Positions 2,280 through 29,497 of a stretch of DNA of 64,000 bases are shown piece by piece. Each line of letters begins with the position of its first letter. Position 1 is the first letter of the stretch. The notes beneath the pieces are model-generated. The model did no database searches and was not told the origin of the DNA. It saw only the letters and a program-made list of their open reading frames with translations. The translations under genes were made by a program, and so were the position numbers. This DNA is from Escherichia phage FL33, in sequence record PP400788; one strand, written 5' to 3'.

Positions 2280-4457
2280 TTAGGCCGCAAGGGCCTTCAT
2301 AGTTTTAGCGATTTGGGAAACTTCATCATCACTTAAAGAGTTGCGATAACCGATGAAGTCGGAAACAATACGGAATTTCTTGGTAAACTCAGCAACCATT
2401 TTATCACTGTTTTTTGAAGCATTATTTGATAATACATCAAAAAGATTAGTTACTGTCCAGATGTCATGACCGATGGTATCTTTTCCACCGTTGAAATATA
2501 CACCCTGTAATGAACTAACCATATTAGCGAGTCGTGTATATTCTTCAGAAACTTCATCTACACTGAAGTACTTCATCATAAAATCTAGTTCAGGATACTT
2601 AATAATTTTATCAATATATCGTTTAGCTGAACTTGAATAACCTACATACTTATCATAATCTACATCATCAAAAGCATCTACATATAAATCACGCAGAGTT
2701 TCAAAAATACATTGGCACTGACCAAGTTCTTTTACCTTTTTCTGCAAAAGCGGACGAATAACATAAAATTCATTAATGCCAATAAGATTAGCCATACGAG
2801 TCAAAATACTCGTAGATGGATGACAAAGCGATGTAGTACCATCCATAGAGAAAATATCAGAACGATGCATGTATGCTACATAACCAGTAATTTCATCTGC
2901 TTCTGACGTAAGTGTAAACAGTTCCTCTTTTTCCCAGCGCCCGTCTTTAATTTCAAACTTAAATGCAGTAACAGCTTTAGGACGAGGAGCTTTACTTTTA
3001 ACTGCCTTCGGAATATAACTTTTAACTAAATCTTCAATTTCTGACAAATAATGAATGTTAACTTCATCACTTTCAAACATTGCCATAATATCAGGAAGCA
3101 AATCAATCTGCGATTCTACTTCCGGATTAATAAACAGAAGACGCTCATTGTGATGAATATTTAAGGTGTTATTAAATTCATTATCATCTAACGCACGTGC
3201 TAATCCACGGACAATATTAACACGATTTTTAATATTATCAATGACGATATTAATTTTTGTTGTGTTAATACCAAACAGACGATAACTTGATGCAACGGCT
3301 GAAGTTTCATGGCTTTGCTTAATGCGTTTCAGTCGAGGGTCAAGATTTACTTCATACACAACCCCTGCATTGCATAACTTACTGTCAGGCTCAAACATGC
3401 TCTGCATCTTCTTATATGACAGATTTTTAGTCGTGAATTTGACCGAATTACTAATCATATAATCTCGAGCAGAATATCCCATCTTCATCAATTCACGGTA
3501 TGTATGACGAGGAGATGTAGATTCTTTAAATCGTTTTACATCTTCATTAAATGCCTTCTCACTAAGCTCTTTAACACGCTCAATAATATTTTTACGAGTA
3601 CGATCATCTAGTGAAAGAGCCTCACGCGATGGAGCAATATCAAGTGAACCCATTGGAAACTTAATGTAATTCACTTCATTGCGAATGCTTAACCAGTTAC
3701 GGTCTCTAATAACGCCATCAATAGGATAAACAATACCACCATAGATAGCATATAATCCACCACGATCTGGCCAGTATCTTTCTGGATTTACACCATAATA
3801 ATCATCAAAATCCGGAAAATAATCAATTTCACGGTCAAGACCGTTAATGATAGCTAAATCTTTGAATGGTCGCATGATATAAGAAACTTCATAAGCAAAG
3901 TTTTTAAAGTCTTTTTCTTCAACTGGAACTACGATTTCAATACCAGTTTTATCGTCTGGACCCATTTCCTTTACGAATGTAGGTTTAATCTGCGGACCGT
4001 CACCATCCATATAAGCTACATAACCGCGAATTTCACCTTTATGGTACGAAGTAATACTAAACGTATCAGTATAACTAAACGGAGATTTAGAACCTAAACC
4101 AAATCCACCAATGAAATCGTTAGATTCAGCCTTAGATGAACTAAAGTATGAATTATACAACCCAGGAGAATTATCATCACCTTGAATATCAAAATCACTC
4201 ATACCTGGACCAAAGTCTCGACAAACAAATCGTGGGTCTAATCGTCCTGGAACTTGAATGATAAATTTTTCAGGATTTCCATTAAGAGCATGGGCATCAA
4301 TCATGTTGGTAATCAATTCACGGACTACTGCGCGAATCTTGTTTGTATACAAATCAGATGATAGAATTTTAAATACTTTAGGAGATGCTGTGATGCTAAA
4401 TGCTTTTGATTTAGAACCATTACCAAGAATTGTTTCTTTTTCAGTGGTGATAATCAT
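2280..4457 (-). CDS. rIIA: rIIA protein, 725 aa
   Basis: Length equals T4 rIIA as recalled; N-terminal histidine-kinase-like ATPase region; synteny. Confidence 0.9.
2282..2296 (-). other. RNA hairpin at rIIA/rIIB junction
   Basis: AGGCC-GCAAG-GGCCT dyad overlapping rIIA stop. Confidence 0.35.
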
Positions 4458-22024: not shown

Positions 22025-22381
22025 TTAAAAGAATTTAAATTTTTTCTTTGACCTTTTATTAAATGCATCTTGTAGTTGCATTGTAATACATTTTTCTACA
22101 TGAGGAGCTAACTCAGCTTTTCTTTCTTGGTCAAGAACAGCAAAGTCCATTACGACTTTTCCATCAACCCAATCTAATTTTGTCACATACACAATGTGTG
22201 TAGAACCATCTTCTAGTTTAATGATAATCTCCTGGATAACATTTTCCATGGCAGATTTAATTATCTTAAGAGATTCATTAAAAAGACGTTCTTTTCTTTC
22301 TTCTTCCCCCTCCGAAGAGGGGGATTCGTCGATAATTTCTAAATCTAAATCATCTTTATTCATTAAATTCTTCCATATCAC
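22025..22381 (-). CDS. 40: gp40-like protein, 118 aa
   Basis: Position between 41 and uvsX; acidic N-terminus. Confidence 0.5.
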   Translation of the reverse strand: MIWKNLMNKDDLDLEIIDESPSSEGEEERKERLFNESLKIIKSAMENVIQEIIIKLEDGSTHIVYVTKLDWVDGKVVMDFAVLDQERKAELAPHVEKCITMQLQDAFNKRSKKKFKFF

Positions 22382-23537
22382 TTAACTGATCTAGGTCAGT
22401 TTCTAAATCAGCTGCTGATTTACTTTTACTTTCTGGAGATTTAAATTTTTCAACCTTTGAGTTAATTAATTCATCAACTTCGGCTTCAACAATTTCATTA
22501 CTATCAATAGCACCTAATTGATAAGCACGTTTAATAGCATCTCGGAATGGTTGATGCTTAAATAAAGGACCCCAGAATGTAGTGCAGTTGGTATCTTTTG
22601 CACGCCAAGATTTTTCTTCGCGAATCATCTCGCCTGTTTCTTCGTCAAGAAATTCACGAGCATACCAGCCATTTTTAGGTTTTACTACAAATCCTAATTC
22701 AAGAGCCATATCTAACAATCCAGAATAAGGATCGATACCACCGTCAAATTTAACATCAATAAAGAATTTACTTTTTTCTTTAACGGTACGAGATTTTTCT
22801 ACATTTAGAACAAATTGATACCCCTGAAGATCAGAACCATCTTTAATCTGGCGCTTACCGATAATGAATACAGTATCAGCCGAATACATTACGCCTGTAC
22901 CACCTGTCATCACGGTTTTACTAAACATTTCAATTGTTTCAATTGTATGGTTAACCGCAACGCATGGAATATTTTTAATACTAAAATAAGGAGTAACAAT
23001 ACGGAATAATGACTTCAGCGATTTAGCACGAGTCATATCTGCCACAGATTTTTCATTCAAGGCATCTTCCGTTTCTTTCTTAGAAGCCATATTACCGATT
23101 GAGTCGATGAATACAATAACCTTTTCACCACGCTCAATAGCTTCAAGCTGATTCACCATATCAATTTTCAGTTGTTCAACTGACTGAATTGGTGTATGAA
23201 TTACTCGTTCCGGGTCAACTCCCATGGATCGCAAATAAGCTGGAGTGATACCAAATTCGCTATCATAAAATAGACAAACTGCATCAGGATATTTGTTCAA
23301 ATACGCCGCAACCATAGTCAAAGACATATTTGATTTAAAGTGTTTAGAAGGACCTGCAAAAATGGTTAAACCAGACTGCATACCACCATCAATCGCACCG
23401 GAAATAGCAATATTAAGCATTGGGATTTTTGTACGGATTACATCCTTTTCATTAAAGAATTTAGATGTAGTCAGTTCAGCAGTCATTTTAGAAGTGGAAG
23501 CTTTAATCAAACGGGATTTTAAATCTGCAATAGACAT
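22356..23537 (-). CDS. uvsX: UvsX recombinase (RecA-like), 393 aa
   Basis: Near-identical to recalled T4 UvsX over most of its length. Confidence 0.95.
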   Translation of the reverse strand: MSIADLKSRLIKASTSKMTAELTTSKFFNEKDVIRTKIPMLNIAISGAIDGGMQSGLTIFAGPSKHFKSNMSLTMVAAYLNKYPDAVCLFYDSEFGITPAYLRSMGVDPERVIHTPIQSVEQLKIDMVNQLEAIERGEKVIVFIDSIGNMASKKETEDALNEKSVADMTRAKSLKSLFRIVTPYFSIKNIPCVAVNHTIETIEMFSKTVMTGGTGVMYSADTVFIIGKRQIKDGSDLQGYQFVLNVEKSRTVKEKSKFFIDVKFDGGIDPYSGLLDMALELGFVVKPKNGWYAREFLDEETGEMIREEKSWRAKDTNCTTFWGPLFKHQPFRDAIKRAYQLGAIDSNEIVEAEVDELINSKVEKFKSPESKSKSAADLETDLDQLSDMEEFNE

Positions 23538-23614
23538 TCATTTTTTCCATAGGCATCATTATATTTTCCTCACCGGTTAAAGATAGAGTAATTATAACAC
23601 AATAAATTTAGGCA

Positions 23615-24457
23615 TTAATCAACTACTATTGGATGAATAGCATTAAACTTATGAAACGCTTCTGATTTTTCTTTGCGCGAAACACACATGCGAAGAACCT
23701 TTAATGGCTCATCTTCTTCACCCAACGATTTTCTCTTTTCAATATTCGATGTTTTCCAACGAGCTTGCTCTGGAAATTCTCTATTGATTTGCTCAAGCGC
23801 TCTATTATGTTTAGAATTGCTACGAATTGAACTACATCCACCGGGGGCTTGTGCTTTTCCGGATACAACCAGATATTTGAACAAGGCCAAATGCGGATAA
23901 CCTTGATTAATTAAATTGAGAAATGCATACATATCTTCGCATAAATCAATTTTTCCATACCCAATTTGTTCTGTTGTAAGTTTTCCAAGGTCATACCATG
24001 TATTCGTGAATCCATATGAATTTTCACGATAATTACCCCAAGATGAAGTAATTTTAAAAATAGGTAGACGAGCATGGCCATGATAATACCCGCAATCCAT
24101 GGCATCTTCAACGTATTGAATCAATTCATAGAACTGTTCACGAGTTAATTGATTAATTTTATCTACGCAGCGACGATCATCTTTCTTTCGCATTGAACTC
24201 ATACGAATAGTAGTATCATCATCGATCATCCAAATTCGTTGACCTGCATACATATCAGTAATTGCTTTACGAGTACCGGCAATTCCATTAACATCATCAG
24301 GAATAGCTATAATTTTAGCTCTAGACCCATAAGCATCATAATAAGCTTTTTCTTCGTGTTCACGCACTACAATATGGGGTTCATAATCAGTCGGAAACAT
24401 ATTAAGGGCAGAAACTGCCCCGACACGCTGATAACTTGGAATTACGAATTGAATCAT
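23615..24457 (-). CDS. GT-A-fold glycosyltransferase, 280 aa; probable beta-glucosyl-HMC-alpha-glucosyltransferase (T2/T6 type)
   Basis: IPSYQR N-terminus and DDD motif; sits at the T4 beta-gt locus but is not T4 beta-gt. Confidence 0.5.
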   Translation of the reverse strand: MIQFVIPSYQRVGAVSALNMFPTDYEPHIVVREHEEKAYYDAYGSRAKIIAIPDDVNGIAGTRKAITDMYAGQRIWMIDDDTTIRMSSMRKKDDRRCVDKINQLTREQFYELIQYVEDAMDCGYYHGHARLPIFKITSSWGNYRENSYGFTNTWYDLGKLTTEQIGYGKIDLCEDMYAFLNLINQGYPHLALFKYLVVSGKAQAPGGCSSIRSNSKHNRALEQINREFPEQARWKTSNIEKRKSLGEEDEPLKVLRMCVSRKEKSEAFHKFNAIHPIVVD

Positions 24458-25095
24458 TTAAGTGCCTTACATTTGTCAAAATGGTATCTTGTCATATTTG
24501 GCCCACGTCCTTTTAGTCCGCAATGCGGACATATTTTTTCTATCAAATTATGAGGTTTTCCTTTACGATTTTTAGACATCGTTTCTTTAATTATTTTAGC
24601 TTTTTCTGCGCCAAAAATTTCTTCATAAGTTTTACCAGAATTTTCCTTTGCTCGATTTATAATTCCATATGCCTGCTCATTTTTACCATACATTGGATTA
24701 CCTTCGCCTTTCATTCTTTTAGAATGGTCAGGACGCTTAATTCCACGAAAGGCATTTCCACATTTATATCTTTCTTCTGGAGATAGTTTCTTACCGTACA
24801 TTCCATTTAATTTGCCCGGAAAACTTCCTCCCCATGCTTCATTCTTTAAATTATATGAATCTGGACAATTAGCAGCATCTAAACAAGTTAAAATAATTTC
24901 TTCAACCTGTCTAAACATTGGTCCTTCATATAATATTTCTTTATTAAAGGATTTTATTCCATATTTCTTTTTAGCATGTTGCCAAACTACACCCGAACCA
25001 TCATAATTCAGGTTGTGACCATCATGACTTCCTATATACCACTTTTTAGTTTTAGGATGTTTATACTTATAAACATGTGGCGCATTTACTTCCAT
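24454..25095 (-). mobile_element. Seg-like GIY-YIG homing endonuclease gene, 213 aa
   Basis: VYKYKHPKTKKWYIGSH GIY-YIG motif plus NUMOD-like repeats; both ends overlap flanking genes. Confidence 0.7.
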
Positions 25096-25826
25096 TTTCC
25101 AGTATAATCCTTTTTAGCAATATGGGTTTCACCGGTGTTCCACCAATGGTCAACCAAATAAAACTGATTTTCGTACACATGAAGACTTCCAACATTCCAT
25201 ATAATAGAACCTGCTTTATACTGTCGTGATGGGTCGCCTGCATTCAAATCAGATACTAATTTATCTAGTACGTATTTTTGCCACGCATAATCATTACGAT
25301 AGCCTGCCCAGCAGTCATTGCTTCTCATATTAACAACTGCATTGACTTTCTTATCACGAATTAAGTATTGTACTGTATTAGTACACATGAAATCTGACAT
25401 ACCATCTTTATTGTAGTCAAATTGCATGGATGGACGAGTATAAATCATGATACCACGTCGAGAATCAGGATTTTGACCAAGTTCAGCTAAACACATATCA
25501 TACTGGGCATAGTTATCTTCTGACCAGATAGCCCAACCATAATTCGAGTTAATTTCGCCTTTAGAAGATGCTACTTGCTGCCAAATCTTCGGTGTTTCAC
25601 CCGGAATATCTTTAACGAACAAGCTTTTAGATTTATACCATTCAAGTTCACGCTGAATGTATTCATCATTAAGAGCGCCAAAAATAAACGGTTCATCTGC
25701 TACAAATGATGCGCCAATAATTTCAATAGTTTTAACACCAGTTTTATCAACTACGAAATCTTTTTCTTTTAATGCAAGCCCCAAATGAAGACGGATTTCT
25801 TCAACTGTCATAGAGTCACTAATCAT
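25086..25826 (-). CDS. 42: dCMP hydroxymethylase gp42, 246 aa
   Basis: Thymidylate-synthase-like fold; length equals T4 gp42 as recalled. Confidence 0.9.
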   Translation of the reverse strand: MISDSMTVEEIRLHLGLALKEKDFVVDKTGVKTIEIIGASFVADEPFIFGALNDEYIQRELEWYKSKSLFVKDIPGETPKIWQQVASSKGEINSNYGWAIWSEDNYAQYDMCLAELGQNPDSRRGIMIYTRPSMQFDYNKDGMSDFMCTNTVQYLIRDKKVNAVVNMRSNDCWAGYRNDYAWQKYVLDKLVSDLNAGDPSRQYKAGSIIWNVGSLHVYENQFYLVDHWWNTGETHIAKKDYTGKWK

Positions 25827-25833
25827 TTAAACC

Positions 25834-25983
25834 TCAATTGATACATTCATATTTAACTTGTAACAGTAATAAACCCCAACCTAAAATAATAGTTGGAATC
25901 ATAAGAGGAACCGTTACACTATAGTATATACTTATTATAATCATCAAGATTAAAAGCAACACTGCTATAATTTTGCTTTTCAT
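25834..25983 (-). CDS. small hydrophobic membrane peptide, 49 aa
   Basis: Hand translation; ATGA start/stop overlap with imm; not in ORF track. Confidence 0.3.
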   Translation of the reverse strand: MKSKIIAVLLLILMIIISIYYSVTVPLMIPTIILGWGLLLLQVKYECIN

Positions 25984-26231
25984 TCCTTCTCTCTGATGAT
26001 AATTACCTGATTTGGTTGTGCAGACTTTTTGGTTTCACCCGCAATTGACCAAATAAATGTAATAAACCAACCAATAATTGACCAGTTAAACAGTAAAGAT
26101 GTGAAAAAGATTCCTACTGTCGATTTTGACCCACGCATCAAGGCGATGAACCATGGAAGCATGTATATAATAATAGCCAACACACCTGAAACTAAAACCA
26201 TAAAAATTGAACCTGCTACTAAAGTTTCCAT
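25980..26231 (-). CDS. imm: superinfection immunity protein Imm, 83 aa
   Basis: Two TM segments; length equals T4 Imm as recalled; position between 43 and 42. Confidence 0.8.
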   Translation of the reverse strand: METLVAGSIFMVLVSGVLAIIIYMLPWFIALMRGSKSTVGIFFTSLLFNWSIIGWFITFIWSIAGETKKSAQPNQVIIIREKE

Positions 26232-26238
26232 CTTTTCC

Positions 26239-26631
26239 TCACTTAGTCAAATTTTTTACGCATGAATTATAAGAATTCACTACATACTCCATCGGAGCAT
26301 TTTTACCAGTACGCCATTGGTAATTATTAGCCCAATTAGCCCAAATTTCGGCGCAGTAGTTTTCAATTTTTTCTTCGCGTGTAATTACATCTGAATTACG
26401 ATATGCTTGGGCAGATTCATCTGGACGAATAGCCTCATCAAAATTCGCCTGCATTTGTTCTACTGTCTGTTTTGGAGCTTCTTTATAACACTTGACATTA
26501 GGATTATAAAACTTGCTTGAACAGTTTACAATTTTTCCTACATCAGACTGATTTACTACCGGTCCTTGAGCTACACAACCAGTAAGACCTAATGCAATAA
26601 CCAAAATAGCGATTTTCATTTCATTCTCCAA
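26239..26631 (-). CDS. putative lipoprotein, 130 aa
   Basis: Signal peptide with lipobox LTGC. Confidence 0.55.
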   Translation of the reverse strand: MENEMKIAILVIALGLTGCVAQGPVVNQSDVGKIVNCSSKFYNPNVKCYKEAPKQTVEQMQANFDEAIRPDESAQAYRNSDVITREEKIENYCAEIWANWANNYQWRTGKNAPMEYVVNSYNSCVKNLTK

Positions 26632-26653
26632 ATCCGTATCAGTTGATAGTTGT

Positions 26654-26683
26654 ATAGTACCATGGAAGAACAGTCTTGTAAAC
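26654..26683 (-). promoter_or_regulatory. T4-type early promoter
   Basis: GTTTAC 26678-26683, TGGTACTAT -10. Confidence 0.55.
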
Positions 26684-26770
26684 AGTTTTGTGAAAAATTT
26701 TTCAATGAATTCAAAGGGTCCAGAATTATCTGTTTTTCATAAGTATAGATTTATATTACTTGTATGAAAA

Positions 26771-26788
26771 AGGGACCCGGAGGTCCCT
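26771..26788 (-). terminator. intrinsic terminator downstream of gene 43
   Basis: AGGGACC-UCCG-GGUCCCU hairpin then UUUUU in minus sense. Confidence 0.6.
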
Positions 26789-26800
26789 AGATTTATTCTA

Positions 26801-29497
26801 TCAGCCAAACAGGAAGTCTAACGAAGCTTTTTCTTCATAGTCCATACCAGCCGATTCACACATACCCGCAAGCGGTTTAACAAACGATTTTTGGAACAAA
26901 GTTGAGTAGTCAATCCAAGACAGTACGTCAGAACGAATTTCTTTTGGAAGTTCCGTACCCGATGGCCAAGCAATACACTTGTCACCAAATGGATTTCCCT
27001 CACGTAATGGAAGAACCATTACTTTATTTCCATCCAAAATTGGAGCTACACCTAAACCGCTAACAGCTCGACGATAAGTTAGCACCCCACGAATGTGGAA
27101 CGGGCATTTAAATCCTGGCCAACCTTTATCGTCATATTTCGCTATATCGTTTGCGGTTTTTACTTCAGCAATAACTTTATAGTCAAGTTGACGATATTCT
27201 TTCTCAAAGTTCTTATAGTATTCTTGGACAGACTCTTCACCTTCCTGAAGAATGCGACGAATACTTTCTTCGAGAGCTTCTTGTACTGCTTTTGGTGTTG
27301 AACTCTGCTGAGTTTCCATACCCATGATTTTTAGATGTGGTTCAGCAAATCGCTTATCTTCCATATCATAAACGTTTAGAGCATAACGTTTTTTCGCTTT
27401 CCAAAATCCACCAACACCCTTTGAACCAAGCGGAGGACAAGAAATAGCTTCACGGTCCATATGCATCAGATGCTCGCGGTTATTCATATAATCACATAAC
27501 TCACGATATGCAACATCAATCATAGGTTCCATCTTTTTCTTACCGAACTGATTCATGAATTCAACTAAATCATTTTGTTCTTTAAAGCGGTCAAGACCTA
27601 CTTTTTCAATTACTTTATCTACACAAACATATACCGAATCAGTATCACCTGCTGCGATGAAATCTTCACCATCAGTTCCACATACTTTATTCAGATATTC
27701 ATTAATTTTACGAGCAATCCACTGAATACCAACTTGACCAAAAATTGTGATAGCAGTAGCATTTCGCAAATCATAATAGCGGAAATGAATATTGCCAAGA
27801 GCACCATAAAGACTGTTAATAAGAATTTTACGGTTCAGCTGATTTGTGTTAGCAAGTGTAGCTGCTTTTTCACATTCTTCGATCAGACTATTAAGAACAG
27901 ATTCGGTGTAATTCGATAATTCATTTAAGAAATCATCATTGAACTTAACATATCGTTCAACTTCTGGTTTAGTTGAACAAGACCCTGCACCTTTCATAAT
28001 AATCTTTTTAATAGCTTCGGCATTCATTTCTTCAGCGAACATTTTCTTTTTCCAATCTTTACGCTGGAAAAATACTTTAGCGATTTCCTTTGGAATGATA
28101 CCTTCTTGATGCTTATCATACATCCATCCATTCGGAGAACATGAATACTCATCACTTGGCTTAGGAGCTGTTCCTGCGATATATTCATGAATTGGATGAA
28201 CTTTGAACTGTCCGCGAATAGTCTCAGGACTAATGTTAACCTGACGAATAATACTTGGATACAGAGACGTCAAGTCAAAACTCATAATGTATCGACGGGC
28301 AATCGCTTTAGGTTCAAACACAAATGCACCTGGAAAACTTTGTTTAACGTGCGAACCTTGTTGAGGAATAACCTTATGTTCACCTTTCAATGAGTTAAAA
28401 ATAATAGCATCCCAAGTTTTAATAGGACTCATTACACCAGAAAAAGGCATTTTAGCATAATAAGACATACTTAAAACTAGATCGATAAACCCACGAATTT
28501 TATCAATTGCTTGAACTGATTCTACGTCAATAATATTATAACTAATGTATCGTTGATGATTAGTCTCACGAAGTTTATTAATAGGACCATCATATGGTAA
28601 TTTACCTTTTTTGGTTTCATGTTGAGCAACTGATTCCAAAGAGAATGATGGCAAATTAGTAAATGCGAATTTCTTGTACAAATCTAAATAATCAAGAATA
28701 GATACGCCATCAATAGAATAAATTTCTTTGCTACCGTACATATTTTGAATTAGTTTAGATTTTACTCGACCGATTGGAGAGAAGCGTTTCATACTACGTT
28801 CACCGAGAACCATTTTAACACGATTCATGATATACGGAACGTCAAATCCCTCAATATTCCAACCGGTAAAAATAGCAGGTCGTTTCTGTTCCCAGAGATT
28901 AATATATTCCATGAGCATATCACGCTCATTATCAAATGGCATATAAATTACTCGGTCAAGAATTTCTTGAGGAACTTCATCACCACCTTCACAGTCAAGC
29001 TTAGCAGCTAACTTTGCATCCCATTTTGATACTGAACCGTACATTGAATTCAACAAATCAAAGACGTAAAAACGGTCGTCAATTGAATCATAATGAGTGA
29101 TAGCATCAATTTCATATTCTGCTTTCATTGGGTCAGGAAATTTATCGCCAGTAACCTCAATGTCACAGTTAGCTACACGAACAAATTTTCGGTCATAAAC
29201 AATTTCTGAACCATATGTATCACTGATATAAGCGAGTTTAAAATCGTTCATACCGAGAGCTTCGAGACCGATGTCTTCCATTCGTTTCATCCAATCTCGG
29301 GCATCTTTCATTGATGGAAATTTTTGAGGAGCGCAGTTTTTACCGTAAATGTCTTTGTATTTTGATTCTTCCTTACAATGTCTAAACATAGTCGGAAGAT
29401 ATTCTACTTCACGAGTACGTTCCTTTCCATTTTCATCAATATAACGTTCAACAATATTATTTCCGACTGTTTCGATAGAGATATAAAATTCTTTCAT
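26801..29497 (-). CDS. 43: DNA polymerase gp43 (family B), 898 aa
   Basis: Exo and pol motifs (DIE, YGDTDS); length equals T4 gp43 as recalled. Confidence 0.95.
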   Translation of the reverse strand: MKEFYISIETVGNNIVERYIDENGKERTREVEYLPTMFRHCKEESKYKDIYGKNCAPQKFPSMKDARDWMKRMEDIGLEALGMNDFKLAYISDTYGSEIVYDRKFVRVANCDIEVTGDKFPDPMKAEYEIDAITHYDSIDDRFYVFDLLNSMYGSVSKWDAKLAAKLDCEGGDEVPQEILDRVIYMPFDNERDMLMEYINLWEQKRPAIFTGWNIEGFDVPYIMNRVKMVLGERSMKRFSPIGRVKSKLIQNMYGSKEIYSIDGVSILDYLDLYKKFAFTNLPSFSLESVAQHETKKGKLPYDGPINKLRETNHQRYISYNIIDVESVQAIDKIRGFIDLVLSMSYYAKMPFSGVMSPIKTWDAIIFNSLKGEHKVIPQQGSHVKQSFPGAFVFEPKAIARRYIMSFDLTSLYPSIIRQVNISPETIRGQFKVHPIHEYIAGTAPKPSDEYSCSPNGWMYDKHQEGIIPKEIAKVFFQRKDWKKKMFAEEMNAEAIKKIIMKGAGSCSTKPEVERYVKFNDDFLNELSNYTESVLNSLIEECEKAATLANTNQLNRKILINSLYGALGNIHFRYYDLRNATAITIFGQVGIQWIARKINEYLNKVCGTDGEDFIAAGDTDSVYVCVDKVIEKVGLDRFKEQNDLVEFMNQFGKKKMEPMIDVAYRELCDYMNNREHLMHMDREAISCPPLGSKGVGGFWKAKKRYALNVYDMEDKRFAEPHLKIMGMETQQSSTPKAVQEALEESIRRILQEGEESVQEYYKNFEKEYRQLDYKVIAEVKTANDIAKYDDKGWPGFKCPFHIRGVLTYRRAVSGLGVAPILDGNKVMVLPLREGNPFGDKCIAWPSGTELPKEIRSDVLSWIDYSTLFQKSFVKPLAGMCESAGMDYEEKASLDFLFG

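Follow-up and report, generated by a model that had tools for sequence, protein, structure and literature searches.

A 64,000-nucleotide (nt) stretch of Escherichia phage FL33 (PP400788), referred to here as the window, carries on its minus strand the gene order 41, 40, uvsX, a glycosyltransferase gene, the open reading frame (ORF) that is the subject of this report, 42, 42.1, imm, imm.1, and 43. Over this region the DNA matches that of the Tequatrovirus Escherichia phage FL34 (PP400789.1) at 100% identity, and the window sequence is named FL34 in the comparisons that follow. The ORF (24454..25095; this and all other window features given below lie on the minus strand) is intact and specifies 213 amino acids (aa) plus a stop codon; it is designated here as the homing endonuclease gene (HEG), and genomes with or without a member of its family are referred to as HEG+ and HEG−, respectively. 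Sequence comparisons make it likely that the product of the ORF is a Seg-type GIY-YIG homing endonuclease, whose free-standing gene resides at the 3′ end of gene 42 and homes into that gene with co-conversion of its tail. Comparison of HEG+ and HEG− phages gives a result that is new: HEG is linked to a diverged 3′ end of gene 42 and is unlinked to the glucosyltransferase gene on its other side.

Both ends of HEG overlap the neighboring genes. The overlap with the end of gene 42 is 10 nt long (25086..25095); the HEG start codon (25095–25093) lies within these final 10 nt of gene 42, which ends ...GGA AAA TGG AAG TAA and is read A-ATG-G in the HEG frame. In comparison with the HEG− phages T2, RB6, EO1, and BYEP01, the ATG arises from a GAG to AAA (E to K) change of a gene 42 codon; since the HEG start codon is made by a codon change in gene 42, the left border of the cassette lies inside gene 42. 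At the right-hand cassette junction, the HEG stop and the glucosyltransferase start share the sequence ATGA (24454..24457), and HEG− genomes have an identical AAATGA, which there is the end of gene 42. The ORF listing and the sequence, with these two overlaps, thus bear out the layout proposed in an earlier annotation of the window made from its sequence (the original prediction), in which an intact ORF overlaps gene 42 on one side and a glycosyltransferase gene on the other. The neighbors are also as that annotation named them: the product of gene 42 (25086..25826), the presumed target gene, matches solved structures of T4 dCMP hydroxymethylase (1B49 and others) at E = 1e-160 as well as Pfam Thymidylat_synt, and the 280-aa product of the downstream gene (23615..24457) matches Pfam TAGT and bears the RefSeq label beta-glucosyl-HMC-alpha-glucosyltransferase. 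With no linkage to HEG, this downstream neighbor lies outside the mobile unit.

The HEG protein matches the PHROG_314 'homing endonuclease' profile (E = 5.6e-31), and a homologue search of 5.8 billion proteins yielded 69 clusters, 35 of which make up alignment A1. Residues Y20, G22, G33, N82, G94, C189, C192, R203, H205, F206, and C209 are invariant in these 35 relatives, and the near-invariant positions include Y9 (at least 90%), Y31, S34, G35, and G46. The Seg-type GIY-YIG catalytic domain spans aa 6–90 (24826..25080). A GIY-x10-YIG-SH motif had been proposed here; its spacing and its YIG-SH half are present (H-V-Y9, 10 residues, Y20-I-G22-S-H), but the 'GIY' triplet is degenerate and reads H-V-Y, with G-[YH]-V-Y in the relatives.

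The Seg-like GIY-YIG identity itself is upheld by conserved positions, a profile match, and the predicted fold. In an alignment with T4 SegA–G and I-TevI, the protein is 23–33% identical to SegA–G, and its N-terminal 90 aa retain every position common to SegA–G: Y9, Y20-x-G22, Y31-x-G-S-G35, K-Y-G46, E65/E66, N82, and G89. The Seg motifs Y31-D-G-S-G35 and K44-Y-G46 are present, S34 being invariant and Y31, G35, K44, and G46 conserved in at least 90% of 11 aligned sequences. The motif tyrosines Y9 and Y20 align with Y6 and Y17 of I-TevI, E65/E66 with its ERE segment (which includes the metal-binding E75), and N82, in a Y-N pair, with its N90; N82 is invariant in SegA–G as well as in the 35 relatives. 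The A1 family profile matched the I-TevI catalytic domain in the PDB (1LN0/1MK0, E ~0.006), which only the profile reached; a PDB search with the HEG protein as a single sequence returned nothing meaningful. An AlphaFold2 (AF2) model has a mean predicted local distance difference test score (pLDDT) of 85.9, rising above 90 in the N-terminal domain, where strands at 7–12, 19–24, and 51–57 and helices at 36–45 and 61–72 fit the alpha/beta GIY-YIG fold, a three-stranded sheet with helices on its flanks. The top three Foldseek matches for the model are the I-TevI catalytic domain (1MK0/1LN0; probability 1.0, target TM-score 0.63–0.68, root-mean-square deviation 2.8–3.0 Å).

Two results of the protein analysis speak on the other side. 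A Pfam scan of the HEG protein itself found no GIY-YIG model (PF01541 or PF19835) at E ≤ 0.1, so that the assignment rests on the family profile, the T4 SegA–G alignment, and the predicted fold; among the 35 relatives, 11 match PF19835 (SegE_GIY-YIG) and 6 match PF01541, and an NCBIfam scan of the HEG protein gave TIGR01453 ('group I intron endonuclease') 24.5 bits, under the cut-off of 56.05. In addition, no residue of the HEG protein aligns with the catalytic arginine of I-TevI (R27, in helix alpha-1), and no helix is modeled at that place. Taken with two substitutions private to FL34 (V5A and P29L), the missing Pfam matches and the missing arginine could mean that the window copy is catalytically dead and persists as a DNA-binding protein or by linkage, an explanation that we consider very improbable. 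In a single alignment, the I-TevI stretch that bears R27 is an insertion relative to the HEG family and is equally missing from T4 SegA–G, most of which are listed as active (PMC2988022, Table 1); its absence therefore characterizes the Seg subgroup and does not indicate decay. Y9, Y20, G22, Y31, GSG, E65/66, and N82, residues shared with active Seg enzymes, are all kept, and the catalytic domain is conserved to the same degree as the rest of the protein under an overall ratio of nonsynonymous to synonymous polymorphism (pN/pS) of 0.10.

C-terminal to the catalytic domain, the NUMOD-like repeats of the original prediction are present as two NUMOD3-like repeats (aa ~94–140; 24676..24816), which carry conserved N-G-M-x-G-K and N-P-M-x-G-K sequences and presumably form a minor-groove DNA-binding linker. 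NUMOD3 (PF07460) is matched by 22 of the 35 relatives at E ≤ 0.01 (best E 4.5e-10), but in the HEG protein itself the match is below threshold, at 17.9 bits against a cut-off of 20.4. The repeats are followed by a helical segment and then by a C-terminal CxxC-x12-H-x3-C module (24469..24540), which is predicted to be zinc-finger-like, with C189, C192, H205, and C209 as putative metal ligands. These four residues are invariant in the 35 relatives, some of which have the module in duplicate, and AF2 models the module as beta-beta-alpha (strands 186–188 and 195–197, helix 201–204). No curated family matches this C-terminal CCHC region, the module is absent from T4 SegA–G in the alignment comparison, and neither a second member of the HEG family nor a second CCHC module was found in the whole 64-kb window.

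HEG DNA is present in 87 GenBank phage records at a coverage of at least 80%. Approximately 76 of these are Tequatrovirus, at 95% identity or higher, and HEG is absent from ~430 Tequatrovirus records; the remaining carriers are Klebsiella phages of the genus Jiaodavirus (~75% nt identity), in which ~15 of ~142 records carry the gene, and Yersinia phage MHG19 (68%). Neither T4 nor T2 has HEG at this junction: in T4, beta-gt lies 23 nt downstream of gene 42 with no ORF between them and segA is in the next slot, from uvsX to beta-gt, and in T2 and ~400 other Tequatrovirus records (RB6 among them, and the majority of the genus) the TGA of gene 42 directly overlaps the glucosyltransferase ATG. A clade of environmental phages provides a clean pair of filled (L026, L028, L030, and L032) and empty (L029 and L031) sites. 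This distribution, in which many relatives lack the gene and filled and empty sites can be paired, agrees with the earlier proposal of a free-standing endonuclease gene inserted between conserved genes. Downstream of HEG, MHG19 has a T4-type beta-gt (b-gt) and metagenomic loci have other genes; the constant neighbor of HEG is therefore gene 42, not the glucosyltransferase gene. Among 80 diverse IMG/VR loci selected solely for encoding the gene 42 product (gp42), 8 have a full-length family member directly 3′ of gene 42 and 3 have a remnant. GenBank labels for the gene are 'homing endonuclease,' 'site-specific intron-like DNA endonuclease,' and, in one record, 'putative endonuclease segE,' with the CDD note GIY-YIG_SegABCDEFG.

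HEG copies are under purifying selection, with a pN/pS of 0.10 (pS 0.028, pN 0.0028) across eight intact Tequatrovirus copies. Broken copies also occur: the copy in phage Shinka has lost its zinc finger to a frameshift, and 638-nt copies are present in two database records. The remnants in three IMG/VR loci (L080 3659..3889, and likewise L081 and L082) directly follow a gene 42 of the type defined below as class 1; they encode 77 aa, have lost the catalytic domain, and keep only the C-terminal ~50 residues with the zinc-finger module. The coexistence of conserved copies, broken copies, and remnants fits what the life cycle of a homing endonuclease predicts.

Other endonuclease genes have been found beside gene 42. 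Klebsiella phage KpnM6E1 (L106 1391..1915) has an unrelated 174-aa HNH endonuclease at the same junction between gene 42 and the glucosyltransferase gene; its GTG start overlaps the stop of a class 2 gene 42 (see below), and it ends in its own CxxC...H...C. The Jiaodavirus phages Shark_ER15 and Hyena_ER38 are also listed with an HNH-type occupant. The Jiaodavirus HNH endonuclease was considered as a relative of HEG and rejected, because the two share only a 28-aa NUMOD3-like stretch, and it is taken as an independent occupant of the site. A distant relative of the HEG protein, 246 aa long, ~27% identical, and with its own CxxC...H..C end, is encoded upstream, not downstream, of gene 42 in an environmental T4-like phage (L039 1779..2516; L040 257..994).

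The association of HEG with the end of gene 42 was examined in an alignment of 9 HEG+ and 12 HEG− Tequatrovirus loci covering window positions 22400–26900. HEG-associated single-nucleotide polymorphisms (SNPs) occur only in 25086–25400, with fixed differences confined to 25086–25140, and among these loci there are no HEG-linked SNPs on the glucosyltransferase side. Divergence between HEG+ and HEG− loci (dxy) is 0.16–0.21 in the gene 42 tail (25086–25340), 0.055 on the glucosyltransferase side (24300–24457), where it equals within-group diversity, and about 0.04 elsewhere; differentiation returns to background at both edges of the tract. The differences within the tail fall into four patches: patch A (25299–25330), which encodes RSND-CWAGY in HEG+ phages vs. 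RSND-VVFGF; patch B (25224–25233), a cluster of differences; patch C (25163–25176), H-V-Y-ENQ in HEG+ phages vs. H-V-Y-SRH; and patch D (25086–25137), the last codons of gene 42. Patch A is situated between the RSND motif and D179, and patch C falls within the H-V-Y motif; the two motifs are conserved throughout the thymidylate synthase family.

The form of the gene 42 3′ end that is co-inherited with HEG, delimited at 25086..25340 by dxy, linkage, and a recurring left border, is termed the class 1 tract, and the other form class 2. All 9 sampled HEG+ loci carry the class 1 tract, and in a database-wide check all ~76 HEG+ Tequatrovirus records match the HEG start and the class 1 tract at 95% or above; ~9 HEG− records have a class 1-like tract and ~418 have class 2. 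Immediately beside the HEG stop, HEG+ genomes have several glucosyltransferase haplotypes that are common to HEG− genomes, so that the unit comprising HEG and the gene 42 tail sits on many backgrounds. This completely linked 255-nt tract is a strong footprint, at the population level, of co-conversion of flanking gene 42 markers with HEG. The original prediction had also named the locus a likely site of marker exclusion in mixed infections; the footprint supports that suggestion only indirectly and refines it, placing the exclusion tract in gene 42 as opposed to the glucosyltransferase gene. Intermediates among the HEG− phages form a nested series that is anchored at the HEG site. In BYEP01 and EO1, patches A, B, and C are class 1 and patch D is HEG-less; in pSe_SNUABM_01, only patch A is class 1, with class 2 sequence at B and C. 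A structural coupling that forces patches A and C to occur together was rejected on the basis of pSe_SNUABM_01, which combines them in different classes.

The same two forms of gene 42 are found well beyond Tequatrovirus. Class 2 gp42 has the thymidylate-synthase-like RSND-VVFG[FY]...H-V-Y-x-R-H and class 1 has RSND-xWAGY...x-[NR]-Q; 86 gp42 sequences divide into 36 of class 1 and 50 of class 2. The 11 HEG+ loci and the 3 loci with a remnant belong without exception to class 1, and the 50 class 2 loci contain neither (Fisher p = 8e-7, a value that ignores relatedness). Class 1 tails occur on N-terminal backgrounds that are nearest to class 2: the N-terminus of FL34 gp42 is identical to that of T4, and the L026 N-terminus is 98% identical to that of L052. 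The left border of the tract, at the MRSND codons, is the same in three lineages. FL34 diverges from T2 from gene 42 nt ~497; environmental L026 (HEG+) is nt-identical to L052 (HEG−, class 2) until ~35 nt before the MRSND codons; and in Jiaodavirus, KP185 (HEG+) is near-identical to JD18 (HEG−, class 2) up to the R168 codon. Jiaodavirus also has a counterpart of EO1 in ValerieMcCarty02, which is class 1 with a HEG-less tail.

The comparison of L026 with L052 reveals a signature of insertion. The last eight HEG codons of L026 (KYIQEHSL, with the stop) and the DNA that follows match the end of the L052 gene 42 (class 2) nucleotide for nucleotide, from which we infer that a cassette (class 1 tail, a leader with TATAAATA, and HEG) replaced the 3′ part of a class 2 gene, leaving the HEG ORF to read into the old gene 42 tail. 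In L026, HEG has its own leader of ~30 nt (~3739..3767), and TATAAATA, the T4 late-promoter consensus, lies in it a few bases before the ATG; this box is lacking in FL34, where the HEG start is embedded in gene 42.

The one-sided linkage and the recurring border bear on a rival explanation in which HEG is a real homing gene but its product recognizes the junction of the gene 42 end with the glucosyltransferase gene (patch D, 25086–25137) and cuts within ~25–50 bp of the insertion, as I-TevI does; the insertion itself would then give immunity, and class 1 patches A–C would be hitch-hikers. Such an enzyme would account for the finding that, of the four patches, D alone separates every HEG+ from every HEG− genome by fixed differences, for the occurrence in two genera of class 1 alleles whose patch D is HEG-less (BYEP01 and EO1; ValerieMcCarty02), and for environmental filled and empty sites that differ essentially by the insertion alone; the HEG− alleles of T2 and L029, moreover, both have AAAAAAGATTATAA near the end of gene 42. 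Short tracts of this kind, however, should often leave HEG beside class 2 patches A–C, a combination found in none of the ~76 HEG+ Tequatrovirus records, and they do not lead one to expect linkage that reaches ~250 nt into gene 42 but stops at the glucosyltransferase gene (0 nt), or an identical left border in three lineages. The DNA past gene 42 also varies among HEG carriers (ba-gt, the T4-type b-gt of MHG19, and the other genes of the metagenomic loci). Recognition of the junction is thus an unlikely, though serious, alternative.

Homing into gene 42 itself would proceed in a mixed infection as follows. The HEG enzyme would bind as an extended monomer and make a double-strand break in a HEG− gene 42; its likeliest recipients would be the common class 2 alleles, cut near the M167-RSND-VVFGF codons (gene 42 nt ~497–528), ~240 bp upstream of HEG. 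Repair from the HEG+ genome would copy the DNA from the break to the end of HEG, and the tail of the recipient would be exchanged for the cleavage-resistant class 1 tail of the donor together with HEG. The cleavage sites of free-standing T4 endonucleases lie hundreds or thousands of bp away from the endonuclease genes; the DNA in between is co-converted, and resection has to extend to homology past the gene (PMC2988022). Because resection would here have to reach homology beyond HEG, a conversion tract would be obligatory, as for T4 SegF and SegG, and on one side only. The recurring left border would place the break near gene 42 nt ~460–530, in the class 2 RSND-VVFGF codons, with class 1 as the resistant allele; we rate this placement as plausible, at slightly less than an even chance.

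Several observations sit uneasily with homing into gene 42, and in particular with class 1 as its resistant allele. Identities of HEG and gp42 track each other across lineages (69.6/71.4, 64.7/74.9, 62.7/62.0, and 57.5/59.2%), a pattern that fits long co-residence; a recent horizontal transfer over long range, for which HEG identity would have to exceed gp42 identity, is accordingly without independent support. In the environmental clade, HEG− and HEG+ alleles are both class 1 and near-identical in gene 42, so that class 1 can be the resistant allele only if HEG was lost secondarily from the empty sites. The left border common to the lineages might, moreover, mark the stretch best conserved for homeologous recombination and not the position of a break. 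Finally, a literature search found no experimental or dedicated account of HEG, and none of cleavage or homing by it or its close relatives.

The parallel divergence of HEG and gp42 is also what would be expected of a formerly mobile endonuclease that no longer homes, whose patchy distribution reflects vertical inheritance, ordinary recombination, and deletion and which is kept for some other role, for example interference with competing phages, local stimulation of recombination, or DNA-binding regulation. A pN/pS of 0.10 is strong purifying selection for a purely selfish gene, and two recent papers describe phage homing endonuclease genes with competitive or anti-defense roles (PMC11620839, PMC13096335). 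We nevertheless judge this explanation improbable, given that HEG and its gene 42 tail occur on many unrelated mosaic backgrounds with differentiation at background past both edges, that frameshifted copies and remnants (Shinka, the 638-nt copies, and L080–82) fit the usual life cycle of such genes, and that the tail of a class 2 gene has been replaced at the L026/L052 junction.

If homing into gene 42 is accepted, the argument can be extended, more speculatively than the placement of the break, to the enzyme that gene 42 encodes. It is conceivable, although we would not call it probable, that the class 1 and class 2 active-site solutions of dCMP hydroxymethylase across T4-like phages are a product of the HEG family. 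On this tentative reading the endonuclease would cut class 2 alleles at the MRSND/VVFGF codons, class 1 would be the immune cargo allele written into invaded genomes, and HEG− class 1 phages (BYEP01, EO1, ValerieMcCarty02, L029, and many metagenomic phages) might be cured, immune survivors.

Expression of HEG in FL34 is probably low and coupled to translation of gene 42, because its ATG lies in the last codons of gene 42 and neither a promoter nor a strong Shine-Dalgarno sequence is evident. A promoter and terminator scan around HEG showed no enrichment (14 sites vs. 12.6 expected), no match to the late-promoter sequence TATAAATA was found near HEG in the window, and the predicted RNA fold of the HEG start region is not unusual (z = −0.89); consequently, neither a promoter of its own nor a hairpin that sequesters the ribosome-binding site is claimed for the gene. 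A G+C-rich hairpin, GGGGCAGTTTCTGCCCT, followed by a T-rich stretch (24405..24421), lies ~35 nt inside the glucosyltransferase ORF; a simple scan marked it as terminator-like, and it is present in HEG+ and HEG− genomes alike.

Among characterized systems, the T4 segF gene and its target gene 56 are the closest analogue of HEG and gene 42 in layout and in inferred behavior. SegF, encoded between genes 56 and soc, likewise has a Seg-type GIY-YIG N-terminal domain and is 25% identical to the HEG protein; its gene stands directly 3′ of a conserved nucleotide-metabolism gene, which the segF start overlaps by 11 nt, as against 10 nt for HEG. Cleavage by SegF takes place in the upstream gene (PMC2988022, Table 1), which is the geometry that the footprint at gene 42 would imply; the activity of SegF has been shown, whereas HEG is known from its sequence. 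The two differ in target, gene 56 as opposed to gene 42, and SegF does not have the C-terminal CxxC...H...C module. SegG, encoded between T4 genes 32 and 59, is a precedent for co-conversion from a distant site, with which the tract of ~250 nt described here fits; SegG differs in locus and in C-terminal region and is 23% identical to the HEG protein. SegA and SegE, with which the HEG protein has the Seg-type catalytic domain in common (28–29% identity), are its nearest named sequence relatives but not orthologues. They differ from it in the C-terminal domain; T4 segA is found in the neighboring slot of the uvsX-to-42 region, and SegE is the namesake of PF19835, the Pfam family matched by 11 of the 35 HEG relatives. 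SegA cuts uvsX and SegE cuts uvsW (PMC2988022).

I-TevI, encoded by the td intron of T4, provides the catalytic domain that is the best structural match of the HEG protein. In I-TevI, the catalytic domain is followed by an extended linker and by modules for DNA binding, among them a zinc finger and a NUMOD3-type element (PMC2988022). The HEG protein follows the same modular plan, but it is not intron-encoded and is without helix alpha-1 (R27); its zinc-binding motif is a CCHC at the extreme C-terminus, as opposed to the Cys4 finger in the linker of I-TevI, and no helix-turn-helix (NUMOD1) was detected in it, unlike in I-TevI.

The uvsX-to-42 region has been remarked upon, in general terms, as varying by presumed homing endonuclease genes (PMC8056088). 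In the window, uvsX (22356..23537) is intact, and only 77 nt (23538..23614) separate it from the glucosyltransferase gene, where T4 has segA (L001 2571..3236); the segA slot of T4 and the 77-nt spacer of FL34 indicate that the region holds different endonuclease genes across the T-even phages. In BYEP01 (L005 286..1008), and likewise in HY03 (L008) and pSe_SNUABM_01 (L100), uvsX is annotated as two pieces that flank a 240-aa ORF with a NUMOD3 match (E = 3e-10) and weak NUMOD1 matches. This ORF, which has no counterpart in FL34, is probably another endonuclease gene or an intron. On the other side of gene 42, between it and imm, is 42.1 (25834..25983), a hydrophobic ORF of 49 aa named after the RB6 annotation; it is annotated in RB6, G4498, and pSe_SNUABM_01, and T2, HY03, and others have an unannotated gap of ~150 nt in its place. 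Its presence or absence among relatives could be a difference of annotation or a real one.

HEG is an ordinary type of element for a T4-like phage, an uncharacterized member of a well-known class. Seg endonucleases are textbook elements of T4, but this gene is absent from T4, from T2, and from the classical literature. The present analysis contributes a sharp and testable footprint of co-conversion within an essential gene, tied to two active-site sequence classes of dCMP hydroxymethylase; an essential gene for nucleotide modification appears here to be the target of intronless homing. The predictions are specific: cleavage should fall within gene 42 nt ~460–530, the alleles of T2, RB6, and JD18 should be sensitive, and those of FL34, EO1, and KP185 should be resistant. 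For phage genomics and for therapeutic cocktails, the locus is one at which mixed infection should skew inheritance, and since gene 42 is not inherited as a unit, its 3′ third being passed on separately from the remainder, the finding matters for the use of gene 42 as a phylogenetic marker. If the tentative reading of the two active-site classes were true, the active site of an essential enzyme would have been partly rewritten by a selfish gene, and repeatedly so, in three or more phage lineages.

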